From IMG/VR virus record IMGVR_UViG_3300047388_000152, positions 1 through 56,483 of that record: a stretch of DNA of 56,483 nucleotides, one strand, 5' to 3'. The notes below the pieces were generated by a model. It ran no database searches. It was given only the letters and a program-made list of their open reading frames with translations, and had not been told where the DNA came from. Position numbers and translations under genes: made by a program. This DNA comes from a virus (Duplodnaviria; Caudoviricetes). This document shows, piece after piece, positions 1,541-37,200 of the stretch; position 1 is the stretch's first letter; each line of letters opens with the position of its first letter.

Positions 1541-2656
1541 ATGGGAAAAGTACAAAATATCTATGGGTCAGTAACGCGGTCTGAGGCGATGAAAACTATC
1601 ATCGCTCTAAGCAAGGGCGATGAATGGGGTTCGCCCCTTACGGTTTTAGTTACGGGGCCAATGGGTTCATCAAAGAGTGCGATGTTCCATGACTTGCAAC
1701 GTGCTTTGCCCACACACGATGGGTACTTTCACGATTGCACAACAAACGAAGCTGGTGACCTCCTGATGCCGTCTGTCACAGACAAAGACGCTGAGGTGCC
1801 TAAACTCCGCTTCGCTCCAGCAGAGACGCTAGGATTCACTAACAAGCGTCCTGTATTCATCTTTGCGGACGAACTGGACAAGGCTCCTAAAGCCATTCAG
1901 AACGTCTTTAACCGCATTGCTCACGAAGGGGCTTTGGGCAACTATGTATTGCCTCCGGGTTCGTTTATGGTGGCTACGTCCAACAGAACTGAGGAAGGTC
2001 TGGGGGATAATCGGCAGGCTAACATGCGTGACCGCACGGTGAGCATCGACATTAAGATGCCTGACTCTAAGGAGTGGATAGAGAACTACGCTCTAGGAGC
2101 TAACGTGCATCCTACCGTGCTAACTACGGTCTCAGAGATACCGGATATGCTGGCAGACTTTAGGGACGTAACAAAGGCGGCAGACAATCCCTACATCCAT
2201 CATCCGTCCGAGAATCGAGAACACGGCACAAGCTGTCGGTCGCTGGCTAACGCTTCTAAGGCTCTGTATCGTCTCGAAAAGGACGGACTCTCGGCAAGCG
2301 TCATAGCACACGTTCTTACAGGCATAATCGGTGCACCAGCGGCGGCAGAGATGATTTCAATTCACACTCTGCACAATGAGCTCCCTCGATATGACGAAGT
2401 TATCAAGAGTCCTGAAAAGGCTAAGATTCCTTCAAAGTCAGCGGCTATGTGCCTGTTCGTCTATACAGCTATACAGAGGGCAGAGCCTAAAGATGTAGCT
2501 TCACTAATGAAGTACGTGCAGCGTCTACCGTTGGAGCAACAGGCGATGTTTTTCTTTGGTGTTATCCGCAGTCCTAAAGCGGCACAGCTTACGCCTGAGA
2601 ATGGAATGATAGATTGGGGACGCACAAACTCGTGGCTTACCCGCAATGATAGTTAG
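1541..2656 (+). CDS. MoxR-like AAA+ ATPase
   Basis: Walker A-like GPMGSSKS, Walker B FIFADE, ATSNR sensor; paired with a downstream VWA gene. Confidence 0.85.
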   Translation: MGKVQNIYGSVTRSEAMKTIIALSKGDEWGSPLTVLVTGPMGSSKSAMFHDLQRALPTHDGYFHDCTTNEAGDLLMPSVTDKDAEVPKLRFAPAETLGFTNKRPVFIFADELDKAPKAIQNVFNRIAHEGALGNYVLPPGSFMVATSNRTEEGLGDNRQANMRDRTVSIDIKMPDSKEWIENYALGANVHPTVLTTVSEIPDMLADFRDVTKAADNPYIHHPSENREHGTSCRSLANASKALYRLEKDGLSASVIAHVLTGIIGAPAAAEMISIHTLHNELPRYDEVIKSPEKAKIPSKSAAMCLFVYTAIQRAEPKDVASLMKYVQRLPLEQQAMFFFGVIRSPKAAQLTPENGMIDWGRTNSWLTRNDS

Positions 2657-3381
2657 AGTCCTATTCCCATCTCATCGAACCACTTCGGAGTTTCGCCTTT
2701 CACTTCAAAGCGTGTCTGAAACTTAATCGACTTGCGGTAGTTATCGCCCGGAGGGAGATATTGGAGATTGTTCGGAACGTGCAAGCCTGAAACCATCTTG
2801 CCGTGCAAGGGGATGATGTGGTCAACCGTCATCCCCTCTGGGCAATCTCGATAGGTTTGGCGTATCTTTGTGAGGTCTGACCAAGGGGGAATACGTTGTT
2901 TCTTCGCGGCTTCACGCTTGCGTTGAATGTGCAGATTGTAGGCTTTGGTATTCGCCTCTCCGTGAATCGTGTGGCAATTTCGCTGTACTTCACGAGCCAA
3001 GCATCCACAGGAACGTGTCGCAACTTTACCAGTGAGATTGCCGCGTACCACGTAGACAGTGTTGCCGCAGTCACACAAGCACTCCCATTCAGTGCCTTGT
3101 CCGTGGCCATTTACCTGTCCGCGTAGTTTGTGAATCTTAATGGCAATCAGACGGCCAAATCGCTTGCCACCTAAATCGTTTTTGAGCAACGTGGTAGCAA
3201 TCATCTCTTTGGTCTTACATCCACAAGAACGAGAACGTCCATCCGCTATGCAAATAGCAGTCACGTGACGTTCAGTCCCACACTTACAGCGACATAGGGC
3301 TTTATGCTTATTAGATATGGGCGTTTCCAATACAGTCCAGTCGCCAAAAGTCTGCCCTTGCTGTATAACGGGATATTTCAT
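2653..3381 (-). CDS. HNH homing endonuclease
   Basis: CxCxCG...SCGC repeats; VDHIIPL..VSGLHVPNNLQ; antisense to the operon, with its own TGnTATAAT -10 near 3402-3410. Confidence 0.9.
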   Translation of the reverse strand: MKYPVIQQGQTFGDWTVLETPISNKHKALCRCKCGTERHVTAICIADGRSRSCGCKTKEMIATTLLKNDLGGKRFGRLIAIKIHKLRGQVNGHGQGTEWECLCDCGNTVYVVRGNLTGKVATRSCGCLAREVQRNCHTIHGEANTKAYNLHIQRKREAAKKQRIPPWSDLTKIRQTYRDCPEGMTVDHIIPLHGKMVSGLHVPNNLQYLPPGDNYRKSIKFQTRFEVKGETPKWFDEMGIGL

Positions 3382-4064: not shown

Positions 4065-5339
4065 ATGGCAAAAGCAGTACAGCAAAAACTAACCGCAGAA
4101 CAAAGAGTCACCAAAGCACTGGTTTGGATACTCAGGTCGCCCAACTTCCTAAGTATGTACCCCACGGCCTGTATCGGGGAGACTCGCGTAATCCACGATG
4201 AAAAGGCGTGGCCGTCACCGATGAAAACCGGATACACGGACGGTCGCAATATCCGGTTTTGGCACGAGTTTGTTGATAACTCATCAGACGAGACTTTACG
4301 AGCGGCAATCCTTCACGAAACAGGTCACATTCTCGCACGTCACATACTGAATTATCAGCACCTGTGGCATCAGAATGCACAGCTTGCCAACATCGCGGCA
4401 GACCATTGGGTGAACAATATGCTCAAGGCTCACAACGACACGGGCATAGCCATTGGTGCGGATTGGTTCTGTGACCCTAAGTACGCCGACAGTTCCAAGT
4501 GGGACGTTACAAAGATTTTCAAAGACCTTCAAAAGAACGGCAAAGGACAAGGCAAGTGCAACGGTAACTGCCAACAGGGTAAAGGCTCAGGACGGCCTAA
4601 CGGCCAATGTACCTGCCCACAAGGGTTCGATGAACACGGCTGGGAAGATGGAAATTCCCTAAGTCCTGAGGAACAAAAGCAACTGGCACAGGACGTAGAC
4701 CAAGCTATTAGGCAAGGACAAAGACTCGCGGGGCAGATGAATGGCAACAAGGATTTAGCCATAAATGAACTACTAAAGGTACGGACAGATTACAAGGAAG
4801 CATTCCGAGAGTGGATGCGTACCTACACTCGTGGTGGAGATGACTTGTCGTGGGCTAGAGTCTCACGAAGGGCTATAGCGAACGGTGAACTAATGCCCGG
4901 AAGTATCTCTGAAGCTATGGGTGAACTGGCAATTTGCATAGACACTTCGGGCAGTATCTCGCAAGCAGAGCTAACGGTGTTTCTGTCTAACGTGGCTCTC
5001 ATCACTCAGACCATTAAGCCTCTAAAGATTCGGCTAATTTACTGGGACACGGTTTGCCACGGTATAGAAACCTATGAGCCGCACCAATATGACACAATAG
5101 CTCAGAGCACTAAGGCTAAGGGTGGTGGTGGTACACAGGTAGAATGCGTACCGCCTTACCTAGAGGCTCAGGGCATCAAGCCAGAGGTGATACTGGTTCT
5201 GTCAGACGGTTATTTGTTCTCACCACCACCGGATTTTCCTGCTCCTACGCTGTGGGCGATTCTTCCGGGCAATGAGGGCTTTACTGCACCCCTACCACAA
5301 AAAACAATTCACTTGCCGGATGGGTGGAGTGAGGATTGA
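4065..5339 (+). CDS. HExxH metallopeptidase-like plus VWA domain protein (DUF2201-like)
   Basis: TDG...LHETGH, NIAAD, MIDAS IDTSGS, GGGGT, LSDG. Confidence 0.9.
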   Translation: MAKAVQQKLTAEQRVTKALVWILRSPNFLSMYPTACIGETRVIHDEKAWPSPMKTGYTDGRNIRFWHEFVDNSSDETLRAAILHETGHILARHILNYQHLWHQNAQLANIAADHWVNNMLKAHNDTGIAIGADWFCDPKYADSSKWDVTKIFKDLQKNGKGQGKCNGNCQQGKGSGRPNGQCTCPQGFDEHGWEDGNSLSPEEQKQLAQDVDQAIRQGQRLAGQMNGNKDLAINELLKVRTDYKEAFREWMRTYTRGGDDLSWARVSRRAIANGELMPGSISEAMGELAICIDTSGSISQAELTVFLSNVALITQTIKPLKIRLIYWDTVCHGIETYEPHQYDTIAQSTKAKGGGGTQVECVPPYLEAQGIKPEVILVLSDGYLFSPPPDFPAPTLWAILPGNEGFTAPLPQKTIHLPDGWSED

Positions 5340-7053: not shown

Positions 7054-7779
7054 TCAGATTGTAATGTCGCGGTACGTTTTATAATGACGAATGTCAAACA
7101 AGGTAGAAAGCGACACTTTGAAATGTTGTGCTAATTCTCGATACGTTAAATGCGAGTGCCGTATATGCCAGACATCTTCTTTAGTTAATACACGGTACTG
7201 GGGACGATGTTCATGAATGCGACTGGCAATATGTTCTTTGGAGTGTTTTGAACCGCGATTTGCTTCTGCCGCCGCAAGAATCGCCGCAGTCGGGATGTGG
7301 CCCAGTCTGGCAATTCGTGACTTCTCGACCACGGCAGGATGCTGTTTTCTACCAGTTAAGGCTTTACGTATTTTCTCAATGGCCTGCGGGGTCAGTTTAC
7401 GCCCCTTTCTCGCTCTAGACATTTTTTGTCGAGTGAGCATGGTGGGCTTCCACCCTAAACAGCCCTCTCCTCCTAAGGTGGCATTCGTAAGCGGTGCTCC
7501 AATAGAACGGTAATACGCAATCCAATTCGGCTCCGCGTCGATATAACCGCGAGCGTCACAACCGCTCTCTAAAATTACCATCAGCGGACGATGTCCCGTT
7601 CGGAGTAAACCCTGAATCCAATGCGCTTTATAGCTACGAACTCTCAAGGCTCCATTACAATGATCGTTTAACCGCTTATAAGGATTACCACTCCATCCGA
7701 TATACCGCACCCGCTTGGTCATCGGGTCAAGTAACGCATAGATATGCCATTTATATTGCATATCTCTAGTATAACTCAT
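7054..7779 (-). CDS. GIY-YIG homing endonuclease with NUMOD3-like repeats and C-terminal HTH
   Basis: HIYAL..RYIG..RL..H, E..WI, LTN.T.GGEG. Confidence 0.85.
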   Translation of the reverse strand: MSYTRDMQYKWHIYALLDPMTKRVRYIGWSGNPYKRLNDHCNGALRVRSYKAHWIQGLLRTGHRPLMVILESGCDARGYIDAEPNWIAYYRSIGAPLTNATLGGEGCLGWKPTMLTRQKMSRARKGRKLTPQAIEKIRKALTGRKQHPAVVEKSRIARLGHIPTAAILAAAEANRGSKHSKEHIASRIHEHRPQYRVLTKEDVWHIRHSHLTYRELAQHFKVSLSTLFDIRHYKTYRDITI

Positions 7780-14021: not shown

Positions 14022-14276
14022 ATGACACCTCAAGCATTACTTAAACTCGCGCAGGCCGAGAAAGAGCCTGAACCGTCTAGTAAGTCCGTGTGCTGGCCAT
14101 ATCTCGAATCTGCCCACATTCTCCGTCAAAAAAGGTGGATGTGGAAAGACATCAGTTCGTGGATGACGGAGCACGCGGGTATTACACTCAAAGACATCAA
14201 AGCGTGGCAACGACACCACCACCGTTGGGTTGCGGTGAATAACATTCCGCCAATTAAAAGGGAGAAACTGAAATGA
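14022..14276 (+). CDS. Small HTH-like protein, family D
   Basis: Y...ILR.K.W.W..I..W...GI. Confidence 0.7.
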   Translation: MTPQALLKLAQAEKEPEPSSKSVCWPYLESAHILRQKRWMWKDISSWMTEHAGITLKDIKAWQRHHHRWVAVNNIPPIKREKLK

Positions 14277-14545
14277 GTCCTGAAGAATTACTTGAACTAG
14301 CAAGAGGGGTGGTGGCCAAACCACCCAAACTCAAAGGAATGATGCGTTACGCACGAGCGATGGAAGTCCTGCGTAGGAAAGGTTTTACGTGGGCGTCCAT
14401 TGCAGAATGGTTTAACGAACAAGGCATTCCGGTCAAACACCCTCAATCCCTAGCGGCTACTCTTAGGAAATGGGGCAAGACTCCTGACTACTTGGAGTTC
14501 TGTGCTCAGGAAGACAAAGAGAGCGAACTGAATGTCCAGAGCTAA
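14273..14545 (+). CDS. Small HTH-like protein, family D
   Basis: Y...VLRRKGFTWASIAEWF..QGI. Confidence 0.7.
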   Translation: MSPEELLELARGVVAKPPKLKGMMRYARAMEVLRRKGFTWASIAEWFNEQGIPVKHPQSLAATLRKWGKTPDYLEFCAQEDKESELNVQS

Positions 14546-14729
14546 GGTAGGACTGGCTGACACCTACATAGACACCATCATTTTCCTTCGAGAGAGTGGG
14601 TACAAATGGCCGCAAGTCCAAGAATGGTTCGCCAAGCAGGGATTAGTGTTTAGTGTTGGTACACTTCAACAAGCACATCAGAGACACTTTGGTTCAACAT
14701 ACGTGAAATATGAGCGGAATAAGGTCTAG
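14532..14729 (+). CDS. Small HTH-like protein, family D
   Basis: Y...FLRESGYKWPQVQEWF..QGL. Confidence 0.7.
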   Translation: MSRAKVGLADTYIDTIIFLRESGYKWPQVQEWFAKQGLVFSVGTLQQAHQRHFGSTYVKYERNKV

Positions 14730-15051: not shown

Positions 15052-15091
15052 ACGGTGGGATTGTTACCTTAGATTCTCTCCCGCTGTTCAT

Positions 15092-15125
15092 AAGGGCATC
15101 CGGCACAACGGGTGTCCTTTTCTTA
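15092..15125 (+). terminator. Rho-independent terminator
   Basis: AAGGGCATCCG/CGGGTGTCCTT stem followed by TTCTT; a second hairpin at 15049-15090 precedes it. Confidence 0.7.
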
Positions 15126-15127
15126 TT

Positions 15128-15328
15128 ATGATACGAGCAATTCCAACGTGGGTACTGACGAATATCAGTACGCCGTTCCTACCCAAGACGCATCCGTGGA
15201 AAGGTCGGTGGTTCACGTTATCAGACTGGGCTATACATCAAACATCGCTCTGTAAAGAGTTTGATTATGTATTTTGGTGTAGTGCTCTATGTGGTTGTGT
15301 TTTCTTGTATTTAATAACTCGCGGTTAA
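15128..15328 (+). CDS. Hypothetical membrane protein
   Basis: Hydrophobic C-terminus. Confidence 0.45.
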   Translation: MIRAIPTWVLTNISTPFLPKTHPWKGRWFTLSDWAIHQTSLCKEFDYVFWCSALCGCVFLYLITRG

Positions 15329-15433
15329 AGTGACTTATGAACCACGTAACAAGAGGATGTCTGGTGATGCTGGCGTTAGCCTTTGGGTTCTTACTCGTCC
15401 TAGTGGTGATGATGCTGATTCTGGCTAAGAACT

Positions 15434-15459
15434 AGTCAAGCACTGCCATCGTGTCAGCG
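15434..15459 (+). repeat. Bipartite motif copy 4
   Basis: AGTCAAGCA-CTGCCA-TCG-TGTCAG-CG directly before ATG 15460 of a 42-aa ORF. Confidence 0.8.
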
Positions 15460-15597
15460 ATGCTCAATACTGCCGTTGAACGTCTCTTAGAACGCGACAT
15501 CGACCTTCCTTTACGCCAAAAGGTGATGAAGGTTCTGATAGAGGTGCGAGAGTTTGAGTCGCCGTCCATTAGTCTTGGGAAGAGATAGAGGAGAGGA

Positions 15598-16257
15598 ATG
15601 AAAATACTAAGCGGAATTAGACCATCGGGACGATTACATCTGGGGAATTTCATCGGTTCAATACTCCCCGCGATGAAATATGACGCGGAAGTATTGATAG
15701 CTGAGTATCATTCCATCGACGGAGATGCGGAGGATTTGATAGCTCAACTGTCCCCATTCTTTCCTGCATCGCGTATTAAGCGTCAATCTGAGCATTTCAA
15801 CGCTAAACTCTATTTCAATCTACTGAGCTTGTCTCCTGATGGTTTGCTACGACATATGCCTCAGTATAAGAGTCAGGGAAAAACTGCCGATATGTTCGTC
15901 TACCCAGTGTTGATGGCTCACGATTTAGTGGGCTATGACAGGGTGATTGTCGGTGAAGACCAGAGGCCTCATATCGAGTTTGCACGAGATATTTTGCATA
16001 AAATCAACGAAGTGTGTCCTGAACCTATTTACGAGGGCGGAAAGGTGATGGACTTGCGAGACCCGACTCGAAAAATGAGTAAGTCTCTGCCGGAAAGTTG
16101 TTTCTTTCTAGGCGATGAACCAAACAAGATTATGAAAGCAGTGACAACTCCCGCAGGGCGAAAGAACCTTGAATTTATTGCAGATGCTCTCAACGTGGAG
16201 TATCCCTACGGAGATAATAAATCTCTCAAAGAGGCAATCATCGAGAAGCTGCCGTAA
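15598..16257 (+). CDS. trpS: Minimal tryptophanyl-tRNA synthetase-like protein
   Basis: SGIRPSG, HLGN (HIGH), YPVLMAHD, GEDQ, KMSKS; only 219 aa. Confidence 0.85.
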   Translation: MKILSGIRPSGRLHLGNFIGSILPAMKYDAEVLIAEYHSIDGDAEDLIAQLSPFFPASRIKRQSEHFNAKLYFNLLSLSPDGLLRHMPQYKSQGKTADMFVYPVLMAHDLVGYDRVIVGEDQRPHIEFARDILHKINEVCPEPIYEGGKVMDLRDPTRKMSKSLPESCFFLGDEPNKIMKAVTTPAGRKNLEFIADALNVEYPYGDNKSLKEAIIEKLP

Positions 16258-16460: not shown

Positions 16461-16808
16461 ATGGCGACTCTTCAATTCAATCCCGAAGACTGGCTTACGC
16501 CCAACTCTTACGGCGACAACTATGCCGAACTGCCGCACGGGGCGGGAATATACATACTGGTTAGGGCTACTTGGCGTCCTGTGCCTAAGTTCCAAGTGCT
16601 CTATGTAGGAATGTCTACCAATATAGCCCAACGCCTAAAGGGGCACGAAATTAAAAAGCTGTGTGACGACTGTAATGGGGCTACTGATTATGTGCAGACC
16701 TATTTTCGGGCGTACCCTAAAGATGTTCTAAGACGTAGAGAACGCCGCCTCATTAAGGCGTGGAATCCCCCTTACAATTTACAACACAGAGAACGAGGGG
16801 AAGGATGA
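16461..16808 (+). CDS. Small GIY-YIG nuclease
   Basis: GIYIL...LYVGMS...RL..H...E..LI..P.YN. Confidence 0.85.
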   Translation: MATLQFNPEDWLTPNSYGDNYAELPHGAGIYILVRATWRPVPKFQVLYVGMSTNIAQRLKGHEIKKLCDDCNGATDYVQTYFRAYPKDVLRRRERRLIKAWNPPYNLQHRERGEG

Positions 16809-17650
16809 GTAAACTCCCCGCATTCCAATTCTATCCTGCCGATTGGCGAAAAGACCCTAGTGTTCAAGCTCTGGACTACCACGATAGAGGGGTGTGGTTT
16901 GAGATGTTATGCCTAATGCACGAGTCCGAACAGCGGGGTAAATTACTTCTTAATGGACTGAAGATGCCCGAAAATGTGCTTGCTAGGCTTTTAGGCTTGG
17001 ATAAGCAAATTCTAACCACCACGTTAACCACGTTGTTAACCTATGGCGTGGTTAAGGTCGAAAAAGAGACGGGCGTTCTCTACTCTAAACGTATGGTTTC
17101 AGACGAGTTACTGAGACAGATACGGTCAGAAGCGGGTAAGTTAGGGGGCAACCCGATGCTTAAGCAAAAACCAACCCCTTCATCTACTTCTTCTTCTTCG
17201 TCTCCTAGTTCTTTATCTCCTAACGGAGATACACCGACAGAACGACCCAATCAAGAAACAACGTCTACAGAGGGGATGCCTAATAACCTTTCTGTGGAGA
17301 TTGCTGGTGTTGTAAACGGTCAACCTAAAGACCCCTTACCTGCCCCCGACGAACGCTCTAAACATCCCGCAATAGTGGCCGTGCGGCAGATAACGAAAAA
17401 GTTTCCCAACAAAGACCTCTGGGACAGGATTATCAAACGCTTTGGTGAGAGTCCTGATGTGAGCCGTCTTCAGGAATGTTGGCTTGAATGGTTGGAGTGT
17501 GGATACAACAAAACATCAACAAAATGGTTGAACTGGTACTTCGACGGCATTCCCACTCGCAACGGAAATGGCAAAATCGTCATAACTCAGTCCACCAACC
17601 GCAAGACCGCTCGTGACTATCACGCAGAGATAGATGCTGAACTGAGATGA
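16805..17650 (+). CDS. Phage replication initiator/replisome organiser
   Basis: PAFQFYPADW N-terminus, RMV...AGK.GGNP, Ser-rich linker; directly upstream of DnaB. Confidence 0.8.
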   Translation: MSKLPAFQFYPADWRKDPSVQALDYHDRGVWFEMLCLMHESEQRGKLLLNGLKMPENVLARLLGLDKQILTTTLTTLLTYGVVKVEKETGVLYSKRMVSDELLRQIRSEAGKLGGNPMLKQKPTPSSTSSSSSPSSLSPNGDTPTERPNQETTSTEGMPNNLSVEIAGVVNGQPKDPLPAPDERSKHPAIVAVRQITKKFPNKDLWDRIIKRFGESPDVSRLQECWLEWLECGYNKTSTKWLNWYFDGIPTRNGNGKIVITQSTNRKTARDYHAEIDAELR

Positions 17651-19971
17651 TTCCAAACAACGTAGACCTTGAGAAACTGATGATTGGCGTTGCCCTGTTG
17701 GAACGTCGATTAACCTACGACCTCAAGCAGTTGTCTACTGTGGATTTTTACAATGCTCGTTTTTCTCGCGTTTGGGGTGTGATTGTTGAACTAGACGAGG
17801 AGAATGAACCCCTAGACATCGGCGTTATTCACCAACGGGTCAAAATTGAGGACTTTAGGCTTACAGAACTGTCTCAGTTGACCATTGGCGTTGCGTCTCT
17901 AACGACTCTGGGGAAAGAGGTGAAAATCCTCAAGAACCTCACAGCCCTTAGAACTCTACAGCGTGGATTCTCCGAGATAGGCGACAGGATTGAACACAAG
18001 GCCGACATAGATTCTATTGTTCTGGATGCCGAGAACCTACTGGAAACCGTCAAAGCAGACAGGAACGTGGTTGTGGGCACTTCAAAACCTGTAGCTCAAG
18101 TGTTTGAGCAAGACGTGTTTCCTCGCATCGACAAGTACGTGTCAGGAGAACTCGTCAAACTTCCCTTTGGGTTCGATTTATTGGATAGGTCAACTAATGG
18201 CGGTGTGGCTTTGGGTGAGCTTGTAATCTTTGGTGCCAAGCCCAAGGCGGGGAAGGCTCTAGCATTAGACACGCCCATTCCGACACCGCACGGGTGGACG
18301 ATAATGGAAGCTCTCAATGTAGGCGATGAGGTTTTCGATGAAAACGGACACATTTGCCGTGTCGTAGCCGCCACGGAGACGATGCACGATAGAGAATGTT
18401 ATCGAATATGGTTTGATGACGGCACCGACATCGTAGCAGACGCTGACCACCAATGGCTTACTCGCACTCAGAAAGCCCGTCGAAGTGAAACCCAGCTCCG
18501 TAATCGGAAAAAGCACGTTCCACAGCCCGACCCGCGTTTTTCTCGTGACAAGTCTGACCAACGGGAATTTGCTTCTATCAAGACAACGCGAGACATAGCG
18601 GAGACTGTTTACGACCCTAAAGATGGACGAGTAAATCACTACGTCCCCGTCTGCAAGCCCATCGACCTGCCAAAGAAAAACCTACCACTCGACCCTTACC
18701 TGTTGGGTGTATGGCTAGGTGACGGTAAAACGACCGATAGCCGTATCTACTCAGCGGACATCGAAGTGGTCAACGAGATTGAGCGGGCGGGTTATGAAAT
18801 ACGCAAAACTCGCACGGGCAAGTATGAGTATCGGGTTTATAAAATAAACCCTATTCTACGCCAAATAGGGGTCTTGGGTCGTAAACATATTCCTCAGCAA
18901 TATCTTAGGTCTTCCAAAAAACAGCGGATAGCCTTACTTCAGGGTTTAATGGACACGGACGGCCACTGTGACACGCGGCGAGGTAATGGAGAATTTACAA
19001 CAACGTCTGCTACGTTGATGACCCATTTCTTAGAGTTGACCGCATCGTTAGGGCTTAGGACTAAGATGTGTGTTGGCAATGCCACGCTGAACGGTAGAGT
19101 TATTAGCCGTAAGTGGAGAGTCACGTTTCACAGTCCGTTCCCAATGTTCCGTTTGTCCCGCAAGTTAGCAGTGCAAAAACGGTCAGGGTTTAAGTGTATT
19201 GATTTTCGAGGCATACGAGGTGTGGAACCGATAGAGAGCGTTCCTGTGCGATGTATTCAGGTGGATTCGCCGTCAAGTCTTTTCTTGGCAGGGAAACACT
19301 TTATTCCTACGCATAACAGTGCTCTGATGCTCCAGATAGCCCGACAGCAGGCAGAACAGGGTATTGAGTGCTATATCTGTTCTCGTGAAATGCTGAATTA
19401 CGAGAACGGCCTGAGACTTATCACGCAGACATCTCCTTACACAGCAAACCATATGCGACCTAATCTCTACCGTGAGACAGGAGAACGCATCAAGGAACAC
19501 GCCAGAGGGATGAAGTTGTCCTTACACTTCGATGACAAAGCTAAGTCGGTCAAAGATGTACGTAAGGAACTGACTCGACTTGAGGACAACGGCATAGACG
19601 TGATGTCAGTGTTCGTGGACTATGTGCAGTTGATGAAAGGGAAAGACACCAACAACCGTGCGGATATGCTTGAGGACATCATCTACGACCTGAAAGATTT
19701 AGCTCTGGAGCGAGAGATAGCCGTCTTTTGCAACGCTCAGTTCAATCGAGAGGGCATAGATGCCCTACGACCTAAGATGAGTGATTTCAAAGGCTCTAGT
19801 GCGATTGAAATGGCAGGAAACCTTATTCTGTTCTGGACTCTAGAACAAGAGATGAATCCAGATACTAAAGCTAGGCACGGTAAGTTTTGGATAGAGGCTG
19901 GGCGTAACGTGGCCTTTGATGAGTTCTCCATTAGGTTCTATGGTGAAAAAGCTCACTTTGAATTAGAGTAG
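17647..19971 (+). CDS. dnaB: Replicative DnaB-like helicase containing an intein
   Basis: Spliced Walker A GAKPKAGK|S, SREM, VDYVQL, AQFNR, KGSSAIE. Confidence 0.92.
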   Translation: MIPNNVDLEKLMIGVALLERRLTYDLKQLSTVDFYNARFSRVWGVIVELDEENEPLDIGVIHQRVKIEDFRLTELSQLTIGVASLTTLGKEVKILKNLTALRTLQRGFSEIGDRIEHKADIDSIVLDAENLLETVKADRNVVVGTSKPVAQVFEQDVFPRIDKYVSGELVKLPFGFDLLDRSTNGGVALGELVIFGAKPKAGKALALDTPIPTPHGWTIMEALNVGDEVFDENGHICRVVAATETMHDRECYRIWFDDGTDIVADADHQWLTRTQKARRSETQLRNRKKHVPQPDPRFSRDKSDQREFASIKTTRDIAETVYDPKDGRVNHYVPVCKPIDLPKKNLPLDPYLLGVWLGDGKTTDSRIYSADIEVVNEIERAGYEIRKTRTGKYEYRVYKINPILRQIGVLGRKHIPQQYLRSSKKQRIALLQGLMDTDGHCDTRRGNGEFTTTSATLMTHFLELTASLGLRTKMCVGNATLNGRVISRKWRVTFHSPFPMFRLSRKLAVQKRSGFKCIDFRGIRGVEPIESVPVRCIQVDSPSSLFLAGKHFIPTHNSALMLQIARQQAEQGIECYICSREMLNYENGLRLITQTSPYTANHMRPNLYRETGERIKEHARGMKLSLHFDDKAKSVKDVRKELTRLEDNGIDVMSVFVDYVQLMKGKDTNNRADMLEDIIYDLKDLALEREIAVFCNAQFNREGIDALRPKMSDFKGSSAIEMAGNLILFWTLEQEMNPDTKARHGKFWIEAGRNVAFDEFSIRFYGEKAHFELE
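18256..19317 (+). mobile_element. Class 3 intein with LAGLIDADG endonuclease (354 aa)
   Basis: Starts ALALDTP, ends PTHN|S; W (DHQW), C (VRCIQV), T (PTHN) signature; LGVWLGDG and LQGLMDTDG. Confidence 0.9.
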
Positions 19972-20053: not shown

Positions 20054-20572
20054 ATGGCTACTGCCAGTATACGCAATCATCCCTTAAGGGGAAAACATTG
20101 TCCCGTTAATGAATCCCGTCCTGACTGTCTGGTTAATTTCTGGGCACGAGTTGCCATCAGTGGTGAAGATGAGTGTTGGGAATGGCAAGGCGCTCGTCAG
20201 TCCCAGAATTACGGGAATTTAAGGTTCAACGGGCGACCCCACAAAGCTCACCGTGTAGCGTTCTACCTGACCTACGGGCATTGGCCTATTCCTAAGTGCT
20301 TGCATTCCTGTGACAACCCGCCGTGCGTCAATCCGGCCCACTTATCCGAGGGCACTCAGTTGGATAATGTACGACAGGCGAAAGAGCGCGGTAGACTGCG
20401 ACCCGTTCGTGGCGAGAATGCGGTTCGCACTTCTCTTAAGAACGCTGACATCCAGAAAATACGTCAACGATTAGGGGCGGGTGAAGCCCCTCTTAGCATT
20501 GCGAAGGCATTTGGAGTCGAACGTCCTGTGATTTATCAAATCAAGTGTGGTAAAAACTGGGCGTCGGTTTGA
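20054..20572 (+). CDS. HNH (His-Cys box-like) homing endonuclease with HTH
   Basis: ECWEWQG..YG..AHRVA..HSCDNPPCVNPAHL..GT..DN. Confidence 0.9.
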   Translation: MATASIRNHPLRGKHCPVNESRPDCLVNFWARVAISGEDECWEWQGARQSQNYGNLRFNGRPHKAHRVAFYLTYGHWPIPKCLHSCDNPPCVNPAHLSEGTQLDNVRQAKERGRLRPVRGENAVRTSLKNADIQKIRQRLGAGEAPLSIAKAFGVERPVIYQIKCGKNWASV

Positions 20573-21973: not shown

Positions 21974-22933
21974 TTAGTGGCCTTCTAATGAATAGCCGAT
22001 TAGCGATGCATAGGTGAGACGTTTGCCGCTAATCGACTCAAGCAGACGAACGAAGCGAATCTGGTCGTTAGTCTCGCGTTCGTTATATCTGAACATTTGC
22101 TCCTCGACGTACTTTTGAAGATGTGCAGGCGATACGGAAATGTAAGTGCCCTTGATGGTTCGCTTGAGAAGCGACCAGAAGTTCTCAATCGAGTTCGTAT
22201 GCACATTGCCACGAACGTACTCGTGAGCGTGATTGATAACTTCGTGACGGTACTCCTCGACCATCTGGTAAATCTTGCGGTAGCCGCCAGCGTCGTCGGT
22301 CATAACAACCGAACCCGCTTCGATGTTTTCAGCGATAGCGGTCTGGCAAGTCTCAGTGTCCGCAATCTTGATAACCCTAGCCCGAACCTTGCCGCCACGC
22401 TGAACCATACCCATAACGCCAGTCTTGACGGTATAGCCGCGAGTCATATTAAGTTCCTTGCGTTTCTTGGCGTGCATATTCCGCGACTTGCCGCCGATGT
22501 AGGTTTCGTCCATCTCGACCGTACCGGAAAGCTTCTCGATGGTTCCGAGCGTCATAGCGGTGCGGATGCGGTGAAGCACGAACCACGCGCTTTTCTGAGT
22601 GATGCCAAGCGCACGGTGAAGCTCGTAGCTGGAGATACCGTTCTTTGCATTCACGATCAGCCACATAGCGAGGAGCCACTTTTCGAGGGCGATAGCCGAA
22701 TCCTCAAAGATGGTTCCGACCTTAACGCTGAATTGCTTTTTGCACTCTTTGTTCTTGCACTGCCAGACCTTACGAGCGGCCATAAAGTGGTTGTTCTTTT
22801 CACCGCACTTTGGGCATACGGCTTGACCGTCAGACCATCGCATCGCGGCGATAAGGTCGATACAGAATTGCTCGTCAGCAAAGGCTTTCGCGGCATCTTG
22901 GAGCGTCTTTGGCAGTGGCGTTTCGTTAACCAT
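21974..22933 (-). CDS. IS1595-family DDE transposase
   Basis: Zinc ribbon CPKC..C..C, EMDETYIGG, MTDD, HTNSIENFWSLLKR. Confidence 0.95.
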   Translation of the reverse strand: MVNETPLPKTLQDAAKAFADEQFCIDLIAAMRWSDGQAVCPKCGEKNNHFMAARKVWQCKNKECKKQFSVKVGTIFEDSAIALEKWLLAMWLIVNAKNGISSYELHRALGITQKSAWFVLHRIRTAMTLGTIEKLSGTVEMDETYIGGKSRNMHAKKRKELNMTRGYTVKTGVMGMVQRGGKVRARVIKIADTETCQTAIAENIEAGSVVMTDDAGGYRKIYQMVEEYRHEVINHAHEYVRGNVHTNSIENFWSLLKRTIKGTYISVSPAHLQKYVEEQMFRYNERETNDQIRFVRLLESISGKRLTYASLIGYSLEGH

Positions 22934-25907: not shown

Positions 25908-26096
25908 ATGACTTGTCAAAAGAAGGACTTCTTTTCCCGAAGTGCCGCCCAAAGATTCAAAAAGAACACACATCGGAAGTACGGGGATAAGCAGTCGTCT
26001 GTATATCAATGTCCGTCTTGTTCGACTCCCGACAAAGCGGTGTGGCATTTGACCTCAATGCCTCGTGGCAAGCGACAGTACATACGGAGAGATTAA
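25908..26096 (+). CDS. Small zinc-binding protein
   Basis: C.K..F.S...A...YQCPSC...WHLTS. Confidence 0.7.
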   Translation: MTCQKKDFFSRSAAQRFKKNTHRKYGDKQSSVYQCPSCSTPDKAVWHLTSMPRGKRQYIRRD

Positions 26097-26866
26097 TGAA
26101 CCACGAAGAAGAACGGCAAAAGATTGTCGATAGCGTTCTCAATCTCAATAAGTCTATCGCTAACTCTCTTGACCCAGAGACTCACGTGGCTCCAATCCGC
26201 TACCAGCCTTGGATAGAGTACTACTTAGAGAACAAATGCACTCTTGAAAAAGTAGGACAACAGTTCGGTGTATCCAGAGAGCGTGTAAGACAAATACTCA
26301 AGAAGTATGGTGTTAATCAACGTTGGTTGTGGTCTAGCAGGAATAACCCTCATCCGCCTAAGATGACGCCAGAGTTGTACACGGCGCGTTCTAAGGCAAG
26401 ATTGTGGTCAAGGATAGATATAACGACTGACCCTGAGGAATGCTGGAATTGGACTGGTTATGTCAATAACAAACTAGGCTATCCTGCTTACAATGTCAGA
26501 GCTTTGCATCTGCCGTGGACACCAAAGAAAGACAACACGACTCGCGTTCAACCTATCGTTTGGTGGTTAACCTACGATAAAGCACCTGAACATTGGATTG
26601 TGACCCTGTGCAAGAACCATCTCTGTTGCAACCCAAATCATCTGGCAGACCTCCCTGCTACTGAAATGACAAGGTTCCGAGGGCCGATGAAGAATCGAGT
26701 GGTAAAGACCCATTGCAAAAGAGGACATGAGTACACACCAGAGAATACGTATGTCTGGCACGGTAAGTACGATGTTCGATGTTGTAGAACCTGTAGTCGA
26801 ATTCGGGAGAATGCTAGAAATGCAAAGCTACGTTCAGCTTCAAAAGAACAGCAAAATTCATCTTGA
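26096..26866 (+). CDS. Sigma70 region-4 HTH fused to an HNH-like and zinc-finger domain
   Basis: TLEKVGQQFGVSRERVRQI; ECWNWTG; CKNHLCCNPNHL; KTHCKRGH..TPENTY. Confidence 0.75.
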   Translation: MNHEEERQKIVDSVLNLNKSIANSLDPETHVAPIRYQPWIEYYLENKCTLEKVGQQFGVSRERVRQILKKYGVNQRWLWSSRNNPHPPKMTPELYTARSKARLWSRIDITTDPEECWNWTGYVNNKLGYPAYNVRALHLPWTPKKDNTTRVQPIVWWLTYDKAPEHWIVTLCKNHLCCNPNHLADLPATEMTRFRGPMKNRVVKTHCKRGHEYTPENTYVWHGKYDVRCCRTCSRIRENARNAKLRSASKEQQNSS

Positions 26867-26975
26867 CAAGCAACGCCTTGGTTGCGAAACTGTCTATGGG
26901 TTAAGGGTGAGGACGGCTCGGCTTGGTCTCCATTTGAATAATGGAGAGTGTGAGAGTCCGTGAAATCATCTAACC
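26863..26975 (+). promoter_or_regulatory. Promoter TTGACA-17-GAAACT plus a long leader hairpin covering the GTG start
   Basis: Nested pairings GGTTA/TAACC, GGTGA/TCATC, GGAC/GTCC, TCTCCATT/AATGGAGA. Confidence 0.55.
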
Positions 26976-27496
26976 GCTTGCCAGACGGGTCTGACACCCG
27001 TAATCCCCCACGCAGAAAGAATCAGAACGAGCGCTGGGAATATCAGTGCCAACGTTGCCGTTTCTGGAAACCTTGGAAGGCTTTCAAAGAGTACAAGCGA
27101 CGGTTGAGATTTGAGAAATATATCGACCAATTCTGTAATGACTGCACAGCCTTTCTTGGTCGTCATAAAGACCGTCAACAATTCCGCCAACGGTCTCAAT
27201 CTTCCAGACGCCGAATGGCCTTTCAGCAACCACTGTCTGATGCCGCTCAGTTAGAGATTGACCATTTCTACCGCCTCGCTCAACGTAAGACAGAACAAAC
27301 GGGCATTAAGCACTCCGTTGACCACATAGTTCCTTTAATCCACGACAAAGTTTGCGGATTGCACGTACCTTGGAATATGCAAGTCCTCACCCTTGTGGAT
27401 AATATAGCCAAGAGCAACAATTTCCTCGTACATAAGGAGATGCCTGACGGGCGTATTGTGATTCTGGATGTAGATATTGCCTATTTATTGCGGTGA
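26960..27496 (+). CDS. HNH endonuclease
   Basis: [20 protein letters not shown]...N..K.N. Confidence 0.85.
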
Positions 27497-31213: not shown

Positions 31214-34200
31214 TCAGTGGCCTCCTTTCTTTTGGTAAGTCTGTTCGTCAACGCCTAAGAAAGCGGGTGGCGCGGTCTTAAACACGCCCATCACACCGCT
31301 ATCCTCAGCACCCTCGGCAATCTCTTTGACTATCATCGGCAACATCATATGAAGAATGATGTTTTGCTGAATGTCGTCTGCCGCGTTCTTCCCTAATCCA
31401 CTCCAATTACCTCTCGTAGCGTTGTTGTACGCTTCTCCTAACCTGAATTGATAGTTAGCAGGCTGGCCGATGACATCCTTGCCCGTAAAGTGTTCAAGCG
31501 GGAACGTGACGGCAGGAGATAGTTTTTTCTCCAAGAATGTCTTCGCTATCTCTAATGGTTCGTGGTACTTGTCCTGCTGCACTCCAGTCTCGTAGTTGTA
31601 GATACTGTGTCCCAGTCTCCACAAGAATACGGCAGTACCACCAAAACCCGCAGTTAAATCATAACGGGTATTACCAAACTTCACCTTAGCAAAGTCAGTG
31701 TCTGATGGGTCTGTGGCACTCTCTCCTCCGAATACGGCTACCATTGTCGTGTAGGCCAGAGCCATTCCTGCCGTAAATCGCATAGCTTCTCTAGCCTTCA
31801 GGTTCCGTGTAACTGGGTCATCCTTGATGTAAGAGAACGGATTGAACAGTTCGTTGGCCACTTTAACCTGAGACAGTTTAAGTCTTGGAGCAAAGAGAGT
31901 GTCTTTGATGAGAGGGTTGTTCAAGACCTTTTCTACTCCATCGCCAAACACCGCACGACCTGTGTAAGCATTCGCTAGGTTAGCGATGTTCTTGTAGAAC
32001 TCAGGGTTAGCCTCTGGTGTCATTCCTCTTGCCTCTCCAAACGCTCTCCATTTGTTAAAGAGAGCAAGACGTTCCATATTCATTCCCAAGATAAATCCCT
32101 GTTGAGAACGTTGAACATGAGGTAAAGATTGAGTCCAGTTGCCCCGTAGCTCGTCCTCTTCTACGTGACCCGTGTTCGAGACGGATGTGGATGGCAACTC
32201 TGAGAGATTTCCGCCGAATCGTTTATACAGGTCTACTCCGGGCAATTTATTAAAGTCGTGAGCCAGACGGGTAAATTCTTCGGGGTTAGCGGCTATTCCT
32301 CTCGCCGTAGCAGGAATGCTCTGTTTTAGCGACACGTCTAACGGATGAGTCAGGAACGCTACTAACCCCTGTCTGCCTTGGTGGACATTTAGTGAGGTCA
32401 TTAAAGGACGTGGAGTGTCCACTGCCTGTCTAACGGCTCTTTTCCATAGAGGCTTAGAGACACGGTTAAATTCTCTTGCTGCGTTACTACGCGCTTCCAT
32501 AGAACGACTAGTAGCTTCAGCTTTCTGAATCAACAGCATCTGTTGGTCGATGTCGATACCGTGGTCATTCCAGACTTTCTGCATCTCTTCAGACGCATTG
32601 GCTAATTGAGCCGCGTTTTGTTTGGCCTTTTTAGCAGCCTCTATTCGTTGATAAGAGTCTTTGTAGAGAGAATCCCTCTGACCCTTGCTCAACTGTTTCA
32701 TTAGGTCAGGAAACTCTGCATCCATCTCCCGATACCATTGATTAGAACTGATAGCCCGTCTGGATGGAGTGCCACCGAGTTTATCATTCAACCATTTCTC
32801 CGCTCCGGCAGCAGCTAGGTCGGATAGTGTTTGAGGGTCTTTAATATTAGCCCCTTCTAGTCTTGTCCTAGCATCTTTGGCTAGTTCTCGTACAGGAGTG
32901 TCCCAGAACGCAGCTTTCTTAGTGGCGTCTCTTGCCTCTCTCAAGTTCCGTGCGATAGCGGTTTCGTTCGTCTTAGCCGCAGCTAGTGATTCAGCTTTCT
33001 TCTGGGCACGTTGAGCATCTAGCTCTTTAAGCTGATTCATTGCGTCTTTACGCACTTGAGGGTCTGTAGACTCACGAGATGCCTTTAACGCTCCTATACG
33101 AGCATCATTCAGAGCCTTAGACTCTTTCTGGATATCCTGAAGGATAGACCGCCGTTCAGCATCTGTAGCGCCTCTATCGTTGAGAGCTTTAATCCGGGCA
33201 TCTTGTCTAAGCTCGTAAGCACGTTGGCGTATGTCTTGAAGATGTGGTTCTACAGCCGCTCCAAACGTATCGGTCAACTCTTTGTTCAGGTCTTCGATTT
33301 TAGGAACCTTGTGGAGTCTGCCAGCGGCATACTGAGCTATCAGTTCCGCATCACCGGGGAGTTCTTTCTTTACACCAATGGCACCACGTTCCCCGACCGT
33401 GGCTTTCTGTCTCTCTAGTCCCCCAAGATTAAGGTTCTTAATGCGAGATAGTACATCGTTCTTAGCCTGTTCAGACGCCTTCTCTAGCTTGTCGATGTAG
33501 GTCTCAGACTTCTTAGCACCGCCTGTTCTCTTAGTGGAGTTTTTCTGAGCTTCCGCTAACTGTTTATCGAGTTGAGCAATACGGTCATTTTGCCGTTGAA
33601 TCTCCTCTCCAGTCTTGCGGATGTACTCACTCTCTTTACTATCAAGTCCTTTGTTTCTAGCCTTTTGTGAGAGTTTGTTAAGGTAATACTCCATCTTATC
33701 TGGAGCAAAATCTTCCACGGCACGAATGCCAGCGTTCATCTGTCCCATCTCGGTCGCTTTTTTGGTGAACCGATTTATGAAATCATCGTGTTTCTTAGCC
33801 AGTTCGTCAGCCTTAGCGGGGTCTGTAGAACGTAAAGACTCAATCTCAGCCGCTTGGTGACGCATCACCCCGAATCCGACAGACGCCCAGTTGGTCGCAG
33901 GTTCTACCTTTCCTGAGAGGACATCAGTGCGAGCGGTATCTATTCCTTTGTCGGCTATATATGCTTGTCCTACGTTCTGAGCGTCTTTAGGGATGTTCTG
34001 AGGCTCATAGGTGGTCTTAGAACCTTTCTCTAGCTGTGCGGCATCAAGAGTCTGAGAGAGACCGCGTTCTTTAAGTGGAATAGTTGCCCTTACGTTATCA
34101 GGTGCCATTCCTTTCCCAATCTTAGGCTTGAGTTCGTCAGCACTGATTCTCTCTGGCTTAACGGACTCGGACTTAGCGACCTCGCCTGTGGGACGTAGAA

Positions 34201-37200
34201 CTTCAGGCTTAATATCCTCAAAGGTCTTGTCCATCCCTGTGAATTTAGAATTATCTCTTACGTATTCATAGGCTGCTCTTAGATAGGGCTTAACTACATC
34301 CCCCATCTCGTCTACCATTCGTTTCGAGTAGTCAGCGAAAGTACGACTGCCCGCTTCCACATGGTAGGAAGCAACGCGGAGTAGGGCTTTGGCTAGTTCA
34401 GGGTCAACAGGCAATCCACTTGATGCTGTTCTTGTGGACTCTTTGAGTTTCTGGGAGACGACTGACTTAGCTTTATTGTATTCGTCAGTCGTTACCAGCT
34501 TGTTCTTACTTCCATAGGTTCGGGGCACCTTTTCGGAGGTAGTAGTAGCGGATTCTGAGGGTTTGCCTTCAGGTTTAGTATCAGACGATGCCCCGATTTC
34601 TTTCCATTGGTCATTGAGAGCCGTAGTCCCGTTATACCCCTCACCGGGACGTATCCTGACTCTCTGAGTACCGTTCGGCATAGTATCGACGTAGCCGACC
34701 CTTGCGCCGTCACTGACGGGTGTTTGACCCTTTGGAATCCAATCTGTGCCCTCTGGAGCTTGAGGAGTTGCAGGAGTCTCCTCTGCTACAGGCTTTTTAG
34801 CCGTTTCGATAGGTGCAAGGTCTCCCCCAAAATCAGGATAGCCGTTAGGACGGTCTTTCCTATCATCACGCATACGATAGCGACTACCATTTGCACGTTC
34901 GTATAGAGGTTCCTCTGCAGCGTTCTGCCCGACAGGTGTATCTTCAGCAGGGGTGACTGTTTCTCGTGGTGCTGTAAGTTCGCCCTTTTTAGCTATAGAT
35001 TTCTTGGGTTTCGCTGTCACGTTGGCAGTGCTTGACCCGTTTTTAGACAATGCTTTCTGAGTGTAGAGAGCATCGTTAGTGTCTTGAACTTCCTCTGGAG
35101 TCCTAGCTACTTCCTCACTAGACTTCTTTATCTCTGCCTCTTTCTCTGCCTTAGTTTTTCCTTGAAAATCAGATTCAGGGGTAACCGGAGGCTCGAACAC
35201 CCCACCTATGGTCTCTGGTGCCTGCTCACCATCACGGATAATCCCATTCTCATCTACATAGGACGGACTAGGTTTACCCTCTGTATCTGTAAACGGTACT
35301 TGGTTATTAAGACCTTCTTTTAGTTGGTTCTGTAGGTCTTGAATATGTTGAGGTAAATCTTTGTAAGTGGTCTCTGGTATCTCAACTTGAACCTGTGCAT
35401 TTGTCTTTGGGTCAACGGTCTTAACATCACCGTCCTTAGACATCTCCACTACTGCTGCATTCCCACGTTCGTCTTGAACACGAATAGGCGTGTCTACCAC
35501 ATCGTGCCCGCCGAGACTGGAAGCGTGAAGCAGTGTGAATAAGACAGCATTACTAAATGAGTCTTTATTACTATCCCCAAAGGCTTTTGACACAAGTCCT
35601 GACCCAACACCAACTGTGCCTAATTCAACGCCTTTAGAGAGAATCTTTCCAGTGTAAGGTTCGGCCAACTTACCAATTCCGGGGGCAACCTCACCAACCT
35701 TACCCAATGCGTACCCTTTCGCACCTTCTAATGCGACTTTAGACCAATCTACTTTGTTACCTTCTCCAGCCGCTTGTAGGGCAGAGTCAGACGCAAATTG
35801 TACCGCTGGCCCACCGGGGTATATGACCATTCGAGCAAAATCACCCGTCAACTGACCAGCGGTACGAGCGATAGTTGACCCCCAAGTATTCCGTTGGATA
35901 GGACGGCCTTCTAGGTATCCCTTATCCTCTGGTGTTGCGGTATCGGTGTATTTGCTCTGCGTAGCATCTGCAACCTGTCCGATATTCTGAGAGGCATCTT
36001 GCAGATACTTCACGAGACCGTCTGCGGGACGAGTGCCCTCTGTAAGCCCCGGAATGTGCATTAGGGGATTGGCTTCCTGCTCTATTTGAAGTATTCCCGC
36101 CAACGCTTTAGCAGTAGTGCCACCTGAGCCTAGCAATCCACCAATAGCAGCCGCTGTAGGGTCTTTTGCTAAATCAGGGACACCAGAGTAGGGACTGTCT
36201 ATCGCGGATTTGATGTCATCAGCCGTATCCTGTGCAAAGTTACGTCCCACTTGTAGATTAGGCTGTGGATTCTCCACTCTCTCTCGGTTTATTTTGTCTT
36301 GGAGCATCGGATTAACGTCTACTCCACCTCTAGCTAAGTCTCCGTAACTAACATCAATATTCTGTCCGGGCTTGAAATCGGTGACTAAGTGAAAATCACC
36401 CGTATGAATACCGGGATACTTAGCCTGTAACTGGCCCGCAAGGTATTTTTCAGCATCTGCTTTATTTCTCACAGATGACGGAAGCGAAATAGTGTCGGAT
36501 ACGGCAGTCTTGAAACTATCCCAATCTCTAGCATTTACCTCTTGCGTGGGACGTTGTGGAATAGGTTGAAGGTTCTTGTCTAAGAGATTACCGTTCTCGT
36601 CGTAGTTCTCGTCTCCAACTTTTACATCAGTCTTCTCTCCGTGCTTTGGAACAGTACCTTGAGGTGCTGACATTGTGGCAGTACTTGACCGCGTAGGCAC
36701 AGCCGCTATTTGTCCAACGGGAGTGACATTCGGAACAGTAGTAGGCAGAGACTGTCTAAACGTGTTTTGAGTCTGAATATTGTCTTCAAGCTGATTGTCT
36801 TTTAGATACTGTTGATACCTGTCAGCTAGTATCTTTTGGTCAACATTTACAGGAGATTGAGACGGGTCAAAGTTCACAGGAGCCGTATCTTGTATCTCTT
36901 GAGGCATCGTTCCTTGGGGAACATCCTGAGCCACAGGAGCCGTGGGTTGTGCCTGAGCGTTAGGGTCTGGAGCTAACGCTTGTCCCGGGGGTGGTTTCAA
37001 GACGCCATCCACGTCTTTCTGTGCAAACGAAAAATCAGGAGGAACAATCTTATCCACATCTGCTTGAGCAAAAGAATAATCAGGAGTAGATGTCTGACCC
37101 TTTTTGGTGCGATTGAGAACACCTTGTGTATATTCCCTAAAACTTGGTTCATCGGGCTTAAAACGGGTAGGGTTATCATACTGTTCCATCCGTCCTTCAC

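Follow-up and report, generated by a model that had tools for sequence, protein, structure and literature searches.

A putative pared-down tryptophanyl-tRNA synthetase of 219 residues in a phage, and its virus-restricted family of short relatives

Gene, predicted fold and family

The window analysed here is the whole of IMG/VR virus record IMGVR_UViG_3300047388_000152 (Duplodnaviria; Caudoviricetes), a stretch of 56,483 nucleotides with an estimated completeness of 48%. On its plus strand lies an open reading frame (ORF) that starts with ATG just downstream of a Shine-Dalgarno-like stretch and encodes a protein of 219 amino acids resembling tryptophanyl-tRNA synthetase (TrpRS) and belonging to the class I synthetases of subclass Ic (TrpRS and TyrRS; PF00579), as judged from the ORF list and its translation (Table 1). 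Ordinary TrpRS, at about 330 amino acids, is already among the smallest synthetases. The Pfam match scores 90 bits against a gathering cut-off of 21.1 (E = 2.2e-25) and places residues 2-185 on positions 7-228 of the 292-position profile, and the top relatives of solved structure are bacterial TrpRS of 322-388 amino acids (E = 1.3e-16 with the protein alone, 1e-31 with a family profile), tyrosyl-tRNA synthetases giving far weaker matches that rank below them. An initial annotation, made from the sequence alone, had listed HLGN, YPVLMAHD, GEDQ and KMSKS within the 219 residues and about 55 residues past KMSKS; all four motifs lie where it placed them, and the tail counts 56 residues. We rejected the idea that the ORF is one part of a split gene, since tblastn with eight full-length cellular TrpRS matched only this ORF in the window and uncovered no second piece, all other matches having E values of at least 0.27.

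The AlphaFold model, built from an alignment of 33 sequences, reached a predicted local distance difference test score (pLDDT) of 94.4 and a predicted template modelling score (pTM) of 0.87. A structure prediction set against a bacterial TrpRS had been proposed as a check, and it returned the same fold: VIA-align superposed 219 of 219 residues on bacterial TrpRS 7ent (Z 22.0, root-mean-square deviation (rmsd) 2.1 Å), and on E. coli TrpRS the 219 residues span residues 4-282. Across the bacterial class Ic enzymes (E. coli TrpS and that of G. stearothermophilus; PF00579, TIGR00233) Z is 21-22, the rmsd 2.1-2.3 Å and the identity 34-35%, and the features held in common are the HIGH-type and KMSKS signatures, GxDQ, the Trp-pocket helix with its Asp, CP1 and, by prediction only, a dimer through it, the Glu that reads G73, and a Thr and a Lys that read the anticodon. 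The bacterial enzymes are longer (322-340 residues), and alignment with E. coli TrpS (reference sequence taken from locus L178) locates the losses. In the catalytic half, trimming of loops has removed some 36 residues, among them 4 that follow the first helix, about 10 near E. coli residues 68-77, 7 of the CP1 lysine loop (CP1 being otherwise kept) and 6-7 ahead of the KMSKS strand. E. coli residues 228-239, 256-268 and 283-334 have no counterpart, and the helical domain, of 115 residues in E. coli, is short of about 44. Thus the full helical anticodon-binding domain and the returning helix (E. coli 184-298 and 299-334) are not present, and a trimmed version of 184-282 remains. A homodimer formed through CP1 is predicted: the interaction prediction score from aligned errors (ipSAE) is 0.76, compared with 0.00 for the best of three controls, the three runs share at least 97% of contacts, the partner pLDDT is 91, and the interface is symmetric and comprises residues 36-41, 64-84 and 95-104, which lie in CP1. 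The homodimer passes the mark used by this tool, which 20 of 30 solved pairs and 1 of 23 single chains pass as well.

Table 1. Coordinates of the TrpRS gene, its motifs and other features of the window, with the relatives that carry the candidate frameshift site
Feature	Position	Strand	Remarks
AAA-type ATPase near DUF2201 metallopeptidase-like/VWA-like protein	1541..2656; 4065..5339	+
Homing-type endonuclease genes	2653..3381 (-); 7054..7779 (-); 16461..16808 (+); 20054..20572 (+); 26009..26866 (+); 26960..27496 (+)	as given
Three tandem small ORFs	14022..14729	+	84, 90 and 65 amino acids
Terminator-like hairpin 3' of RusA-like gene	15092..15119	+	consensus scan
Gap 5' of TrpRS gene	15052..15597		546 nucleotides
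Purine-rich Shine-Dalgarno-like stretch GAGGAGAGG	15588..15596	+	just 5' of ATG; read from sequence
Miniature TrpRS gene, 219 amino acids, zero Trp codons	15598..16257	+	ORF list, PF00579, AlphaFold (AF2) model
HLGN, residues 14-17, HIGH-type ATP-binding signature	15637..15648	+	H14 and G16 each in 117/119 members
YPVLMAHD, residues 102-109, Trp-pocket helix	15901..15924	+	Y102, P103, M106, D109 each in 119/119
GEDQ (residues 119-122), then P124, H125, E127	15952..15978	+	E127 aligned to E. coli Glu155
KMSKS, residues 159-163, mobile ATP loop	16072..16086	+	K159, M160, S161 each in 119/119
AVTT (residues 181-184), remnant of anticodon-reading loop (E. coli Arg222-Ser227)	16138..16149	+	T183 aligned to Thr225
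K211, counterpart of E. coli Lys274	16228..16230	+	alignment; K in 119/119
DnaB-type helicase, intein-interrupted	17647..19971	+	774 amino acids
IS1595-family (ISXO2-like) transposase	21974..22933	-	zinc ribbon
Large protein adjoining endolysin	31214..37600	-	2128 amino acids
PP-loop ATPase-like protein	47832..48533	-
Candidate +1 frameshift site in relatives L012, L014-L017, L113, L118-L131, L133, L145, L157	e.g. L016 5979..6010		outside the window

A word-indexed search, which admitted proteins of up to 384 amino acids, returned 149 relatives. The best 120 of these are 44-100% identical to the window protein and 163-279 amino acids long (median 232), 115 of them falling between 205 and 260, and when all proteins were searched the best 34 representatives measured at most 258 amino acids, forms of about 320-335 residues appearing only below E ~1e-38. 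Some members of the short clade are longer (P0159, 374 amino acids; P0164, 320 amino acids; and others), and in these Pfam found PF00579 only and no fusion partner. Among eight genes of a sister lineage from phages of 30-36 kb (L002-L011), the ratio of nonsynonymous to synonymous substitution rates (dN/dS) was 0.03-0.18 in 28 of 28 pairs. The initial annotation had inferred a streamlined enzyme, and had named full-length homologues or a lack of purifying selection as findings that would speak against it; the homologues proved to be short and the selection purifying. The nearest Atlas clusters (233-251 amino acids, 68-78 members each) are 92-95% viral, and the best 80 prokaryotic matches, drawn from one genome for each of 185,579 species, are only 31-39% identical. 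Twelve of these 80 were translated: ten have 325-338 amino acids, one has 378 and one 260, the last probably a mis-call that started inside the match. Judged by these searches, the short TrpRS family is restricted to viruses, and its carriers belong to several unrelated phage types: the 56-kb window, the 30-36 kb lineage, and phages of jumbo or huge size (78-735 kb). A rapid tree of 149 rows, made with FastTree, set 37 of 48 short rows, together with 5 longer ones, on one side of a branch with a support of 93 (not starred); 6 short rows formed a second, starred clade and the 5 scattered ones may be fragments. By this tree the short form is old and diversified, and one origin is as compatible with it as several.

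The co-crystal of E. coli TrpRS with tRNA-Trp provides a guide to the residues that matter. According to its available text, G73 is read by Glu155 with Gln152, the latter stacking on G73 and described as strictly conserved in bacteria; C35 and A36 are recognised by Thr225, Asp226, Ser227 and Lys274, of which Lys274 contacts C35 and Ser227 reads A36; Tyr270 and Gly271 select C34 by size, excluding purines at position 34; and the Asp of a helix of bacterial TrpRS binds the indole nitrogen and sets the specificity for Trp (PMC12135181). We counted conservation over 119 family members and mapped positions through the alignment with E. coli TrpRS, which pairs Glu155, Gln152, Thr225, Asp226 and Lys274 with E127, P124, T183, T184 and K211. 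E127 and K211 occur in all 119 members and T183 in 117, D121 and Q122 of the GEDQ motif are likewise found in all 119, and D109, also invariant and part of helix 98-110 in the model, corresponds to the Asp that binds the indole nitrogen. The family also has invariants of its own, C168 and N190, which are not found in ordinary TrpRS, and the first signature residue is His in the phage protein and Thr in bacterial TrpRS. On this alignment, the tail past KMSKS is a miniature anticodon-binding domain that keeps two key base-reading residues. The suggestion that anticodon recognition had been lost or relaxed is at odds with the match of T183 and K211 to Thr225 and Lys274, although some contacts (those of Ser227, Tyr270/Gly271 and Gln152) have no counterpart.

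Tryptophan codons, tRNA genes and a candidate frameshift site in relatives

Members of the short family are poor in the very amino acid that TrpRS handles: 101 of 120, the window protein included, contain no Trp, and Trp makes up 0.09% of residues in the 120 members versus 0.54% in 66 full-length representatives. In six of six distinct jumbo- or huge-phage loci (L012, L014, L015, L016, L176 and L177) the few kb around the short gene hold 9-35 tRNA genes, and four of these loci (L014, L015, L016 and L177) include tRNA-Trp(CCA). The small phages (30-56 kb) have no tRNA genes in flanks of about 6 kb, bar one tRNA-Met each in L005 and L011. Synthetases of huge phages are known to adjoin phage tRNA genes, and a role in charging tRNAs in the infected cell has been proposed for them (Al-Shayeb et al., 2020, PMC7162821). 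The 642-kb and 735-kb genomes of that study carry short TrpRS genes, encoding 239 and 237 amino acids, among 9 and 11 tRNA genes. The short TrpRS of the jumbo relatives resembles these full-length enzymes in being phage-encoded and tRNA-adjacent, but the accessible sections of that report describe synthetases related to those of hosts and mention no shortened TrpRS, and the short family is found in phages of 30-56 kb as well. A TrpRS gene is noted in one line for pelagiphage-like genomes in the available text of another report (PMC5628999); our full-text searches turned up no work on a shortened TrpRS in phages, and the supplementary tables of PMC7162821 may list such genes.

ARAGORN also made tRNA-like calls with four-base anticodons (ttac, agtt) near short TrpRS genes, at L177 4815-4905 and L014 2207-2302, and the call in L177 lies between the short TrpRS gene and tRNA-Trp.

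A branch of 23 distinct sequences, 41-48% identical to the window protein, carries a candidate +1 frameshift site at the start of the gene (Table 1). Fourteen of the 23 lack any ATG, GTG or TTG in the enzyme frame upstream of the first conserved strand and of the HIGH motif, and the other nine have only a non-conserved TTG one or four codons before the RPTG motif, one of these nine (L017) with an extra in-frame ATG 19 codons before it. A ribosome-binding site and an ATG are present in another frame, where 1-10 codons are followed by GGTG (21 of 23) or GGAGG (2 of 23), any three nucleotides (NNN) and CTT TGG; that frame meets a stop codon 0-11 codons past CTT TGG, and the enzyme resumes in the +1 frame. 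The base after TGG is C in 22 sequences (CTT_TGG_C) and T in one (CTT_TGG_T), and none of the 23 has a further Trp codon in the enzyme frame. Nineteen reach a stop inside the contig, counting two that stop early (L124 and L157), and 17 are full-length. Because the downstream codons vary synonymously while the peptide is conserved, we conclude that the +1 frame is translated. A second scan of IMG/VR for this clade returned the same six loci, the other members coming from a metagenome scan.

The site recalls two known systems. The prfB site combines a Shine-Dalgarno-like element, three nucleotides, a slippery CTT_T, a slow codon and then C (available text of PMC12421855), and at the CUU_AGG_C of yeast Ty1 a hungry sense codon drives the shift (available text of PMC5009743). 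The phage relatives share with prfB, which encodes release factor 2 (RF2), the Shine-Dalgarno-like GGTG or GGAGG, the spacing of three nucleotides, CTT_T, the slow codon and the C, and their CTT_TGG_C parallels the Ty1 site with its hungry sense codon, but here UGG (Trp) would be the sensor and a TrpRS gene the target of control. Full-text searches found no study of a CUU_UGG frameshift. In the jumbo branch, ample Trp-tRNA would let UGG be read, leading to early termination, and scarce Trp-tRNA would lead to a +1 slip and to synthesis of the enzyme, so that the natural reading of the arrangement would be a UGG-gated feedback switch with the Trp codon as its sensor.

Three sequences depart from the pattern: an 8-base deletion in L159 (around 3000-3030) removes the GGTG-CTT part of the site, and in L124 and L157 the enzyme frame runs into an early stop. 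Decay of the gene or faulty assembly may account for these exceptions.

Weighing the possible functions

We consider that the window gene probably encodes a working, pared-down TrpRS of the bacterial type. This reading rests on sequence, fold, conservation, selection, viral distribution and tRNA association, from which we infer activity, tRNA specificity and the trigger. The phage enzyme keeps the Rossmann-fold active site, the Trp pocket, CP1, the Glu that reads G73 and a minimal element for reading the anticodon, made up of the AVT loop and one Lys. Like E. coli TrpRS, a dimer of two such subunits would use ATP to activate Trp and would charge a tRNA-Trp (CCA, G73) bound across both of them, with E127 reading G73, and T183 and K211 reading part of the anticodon. 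The gene, an auxiliary one that stands alone, would maintain the supply of Trp-tRNA once charging by the host becomes limiting, and because the protein contains no Trp, it could be made under a shortage of Trp-tRNA, brought about perhaps by Trp starvation or perhaps by a host defence acting on TrpRS or tRNA-Trp. HipT-type toxin kinases are described as phosphorylating TrpS (available text of PMC10627512). A bolder version, less likely than not, is that we are dealing with the smallest natural aminoacyl-tRNA synthetase, a phage-only, Trp-free 'emergency' TrpRS that is made when Trp-tRNA runs out, gated in the jumbo branch by a UGG frameshift that forms an RF2-type feedback loop with a sense codon, and that would restore translation of phage proteins after starvation or after a defence has disabled TrpRS or tRNA-Trp. 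From the interpretation given in the initial annotation we retain the streamlined enzyme, which the family data show to be under selection, find no support for relaxed anticodon recognition, and hold a role in counter-defence to be conceivable.

Several observations weigh against a working TrpRS. The position equivalent to Phe5, which we take to be a Trp-pocket residue, is Leu or Ile in the family; position 124, where E. coli has Gln152, is Pro in the window protein and in 100 of 119 members and Gln in 16; and the alignment with E. coli TrpRS offers no clear counterparts of Ser227 and Tyr270/Gly271. The protein scores 90.3 bits with the NCBIfam equivalog model for trpS (TIGR00233), under the curated cut-off of 176.75, and lacks about 50 C-terminal residues, including the helix 299-334 that in E. 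coli TrpRS is counted within the aminoacylation domain (PMC12135181). The favourable homodimer score may reflect the model's memory of, or a likeness to, TrpRS dimers, since such dimers have already been solved. Both the tRNA arrays and the frameshift sites used as evidence are features of relatives that share only 36-48% identity with the window protein. ARAGORN found no tRNA gene in the window, in agreement with the initial annotation, although with a record about 48% complete such genes could lie in the rest. The +1 frameshift site is absent from the window gene, which starts ordinarily, and for this reason the site informs the function of the family and not the regulation of the window copy. 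ORF clustering of 19 viral loci and the window region found no neighbouring gene common to different lineages, only the L002-L011 lineage sharing neighbours (a gene block just downstream, at 9 loci), and because no neighbour is conserved across lineages, context adds nothing for the window copy.

These gaps have to be set against other readings of the same gene. If the enzyme read anticodons in a relaxed manner, it could charge damaged, variant or suppressor tRNAs and counter a tRNA-targeting defence or support stop recoding, and the reduced helical domain, the missing counterparts of Ser227 and Tyr270/Gly271 and the odd four-base-anticodon calls in L014 and L177 would all suit such a role. 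E. coli TrpRS itself, however, need not tell C34 from U34 (PMC12135181), the near-invariance of the Thr225 and Lys274 counterparts would be odd if the anticodon were ignored, and the tRNA-Trp genes of neighbouring phage loci have a normal CCA anticodon. All three stop codons are in use in the window (24 TGA, 23 TAA and 14 TAG) alongside long unbroken ORFs, so that there is no recoding in it, and we regard relaxed reading as unlikely. GluQRS is an example of a truncated synthetase paralogue with another acceptor, and the phage protein might likewise make Trp-AMP and hand Trp over not to the 3' end of tRNA-Trp but to another acceptor, such as a carrier protein, a small molecule, a modified base or DNA. 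A score below the trpS equivalog cut-off, the loss of the C-terminal region and the family-only invariants C168 and N190 are in keeping with this, and phages do use aminoacyl chemistry for DNA hypermodification, as with Mom, which employs Gly-tRNA (available text of PMC13219725). This second possibility seems to us about as improbable as the first: the residues that contact G73 and the anticodon are kept, no partner gene is conserved beside the gene in 20 loci, relatives lie inside tRNA arrays, and a UGG-sensing shift would be sensible as feedback only if the product raises Trp-tRNA.

Two readings dispense with activity. The protein could be a decoy or dominant-negative partner that pairs with host TrpRS through CP1, or soaks up an inhibitor or kinase directed at TrpRS, catalysis being unneeded; a CP1-type interface is indeed predicted and HipT toxins target TrpS, but each of the ATP-, Trp- and tRNA-contact positions examined is retained by 117-119 of 119 members, a conservation for which a pure decoy has no use, and we hold this reading to be very improbable. 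The initial annotation had also raised the poisoning of host TrpRS dimers and the making of aminoacyl-adenylates or diadenosine tetraphosphate (Ap4A); as a sole role, either would leave unexplained the invariant catalytic and tRNA-contact residues, the relatives in tRNA arrays and the frameshift at a Trp codon. Although the protein is a third shorter than any characterised TrpRS, in keeping with a host trpS that was captured and then lost its function by decay or truncation, the short length is kept across a deep family with low dN/dS, the model is confident and compact, and the losses are clean loop trims and not a single cut, so that the family data rule out a remnant.

A working TrpRS thus remains the reading that we prefer and, if active, a natural dimeric enzyme of 219 residues would lower the size minimum for a complete and specific tRNA-charging enzyme and would show that about one third of TrpRS, including most of the helical domain, is dispensable. 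It would also bear on the debate over minimal ancestral synthetases and offer a compact scaffold for engineering. Urzymes, the engineered minimal class I cores of the Carter laboratory, are laboratory constructs of about 130 amino acids without CP1 or an anticodon element. The phage protein shares with the TrpRS urzyme the idea that a reduced core activates Trp and recognises the acceptor end, but it is natural and selected, has 219 residues and keeps CP1 and a miniature anticodon element. Gln152 and Glu155 both lie inside the TrpRS urzyme (PMC12135181). Activity would further imply that phages of 30-56 kb, and not only jumbo phages, invest in one specific step of translation, and would point to a contest over the supply of Trp-tRNA in infected cells. 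Predictions that are simple to test follow from the Trp-free composition and, in the relatives, from the candidate UGG-gated frameshift.

Surroundings of the gene in the window

The gap 5' of the TrpRS gene holds no convincing ORF, and no T-box or other regulatory RNA was detected there or anywhere in the window at Rfam gathering thresholds; the sole sub-threshold match, to mir-57, is a chance match inside the TrpRS ORF. The terminator-like hairpin and the gap of about 470 nucleotides that follows it weakly suggest that the TrpRS gene forms a separate transcription unit (the consensus scan found 3 sites versus 1.4 expected). Directly 3' of the TrpRS gene lies a GIY-YIG gene, one of an unusually large number of free-standing homing-type endonucleases (HNH, GIY-YIG and endonuclease VII-like) in the window.

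The other genes of the window include an endolysin, tail-fibre-like proteins, a ParB-like protein, a RusA-like resolvase, a replisome organiser and an intein-split DnaB. We looked for cultured relatives of the phage among 50,697 phage records by megablast of 8.4 kb and tblastn of a 708-amino-acid structural protein and found no match. An unusual demand for Trp in this phage was considered and dropped, Trp making up an ordinary 1.42% of residues over 61 window ORFs.

The DnaB-type helicase has its N-terminal and C-terminal DnaB domains at residues 3-96 and 558-772, with a LAGLIDADG domain at 426-477, and the transposase is located between the replication and late regions. The 2128-amino-acid protein shows a weak match, over residues 794-1389, to DarB-like antirestriction proteins in PHROG, and the PP-loop ATPase-like protein, within the virion-structural block, has weak matches to QueC, PAPS-reductase and ATP_bind_3. 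The pairing of an AAA ATPase with a DUF2201 protein is recurrent in phages (phrog_1297 and phrog_1314). The three tandem ORFs have no family match and are seemingly paralogous, sharing the pattern W-x(2)-[IV]-x(2)-W-[FM]-x-E/K-x-G.

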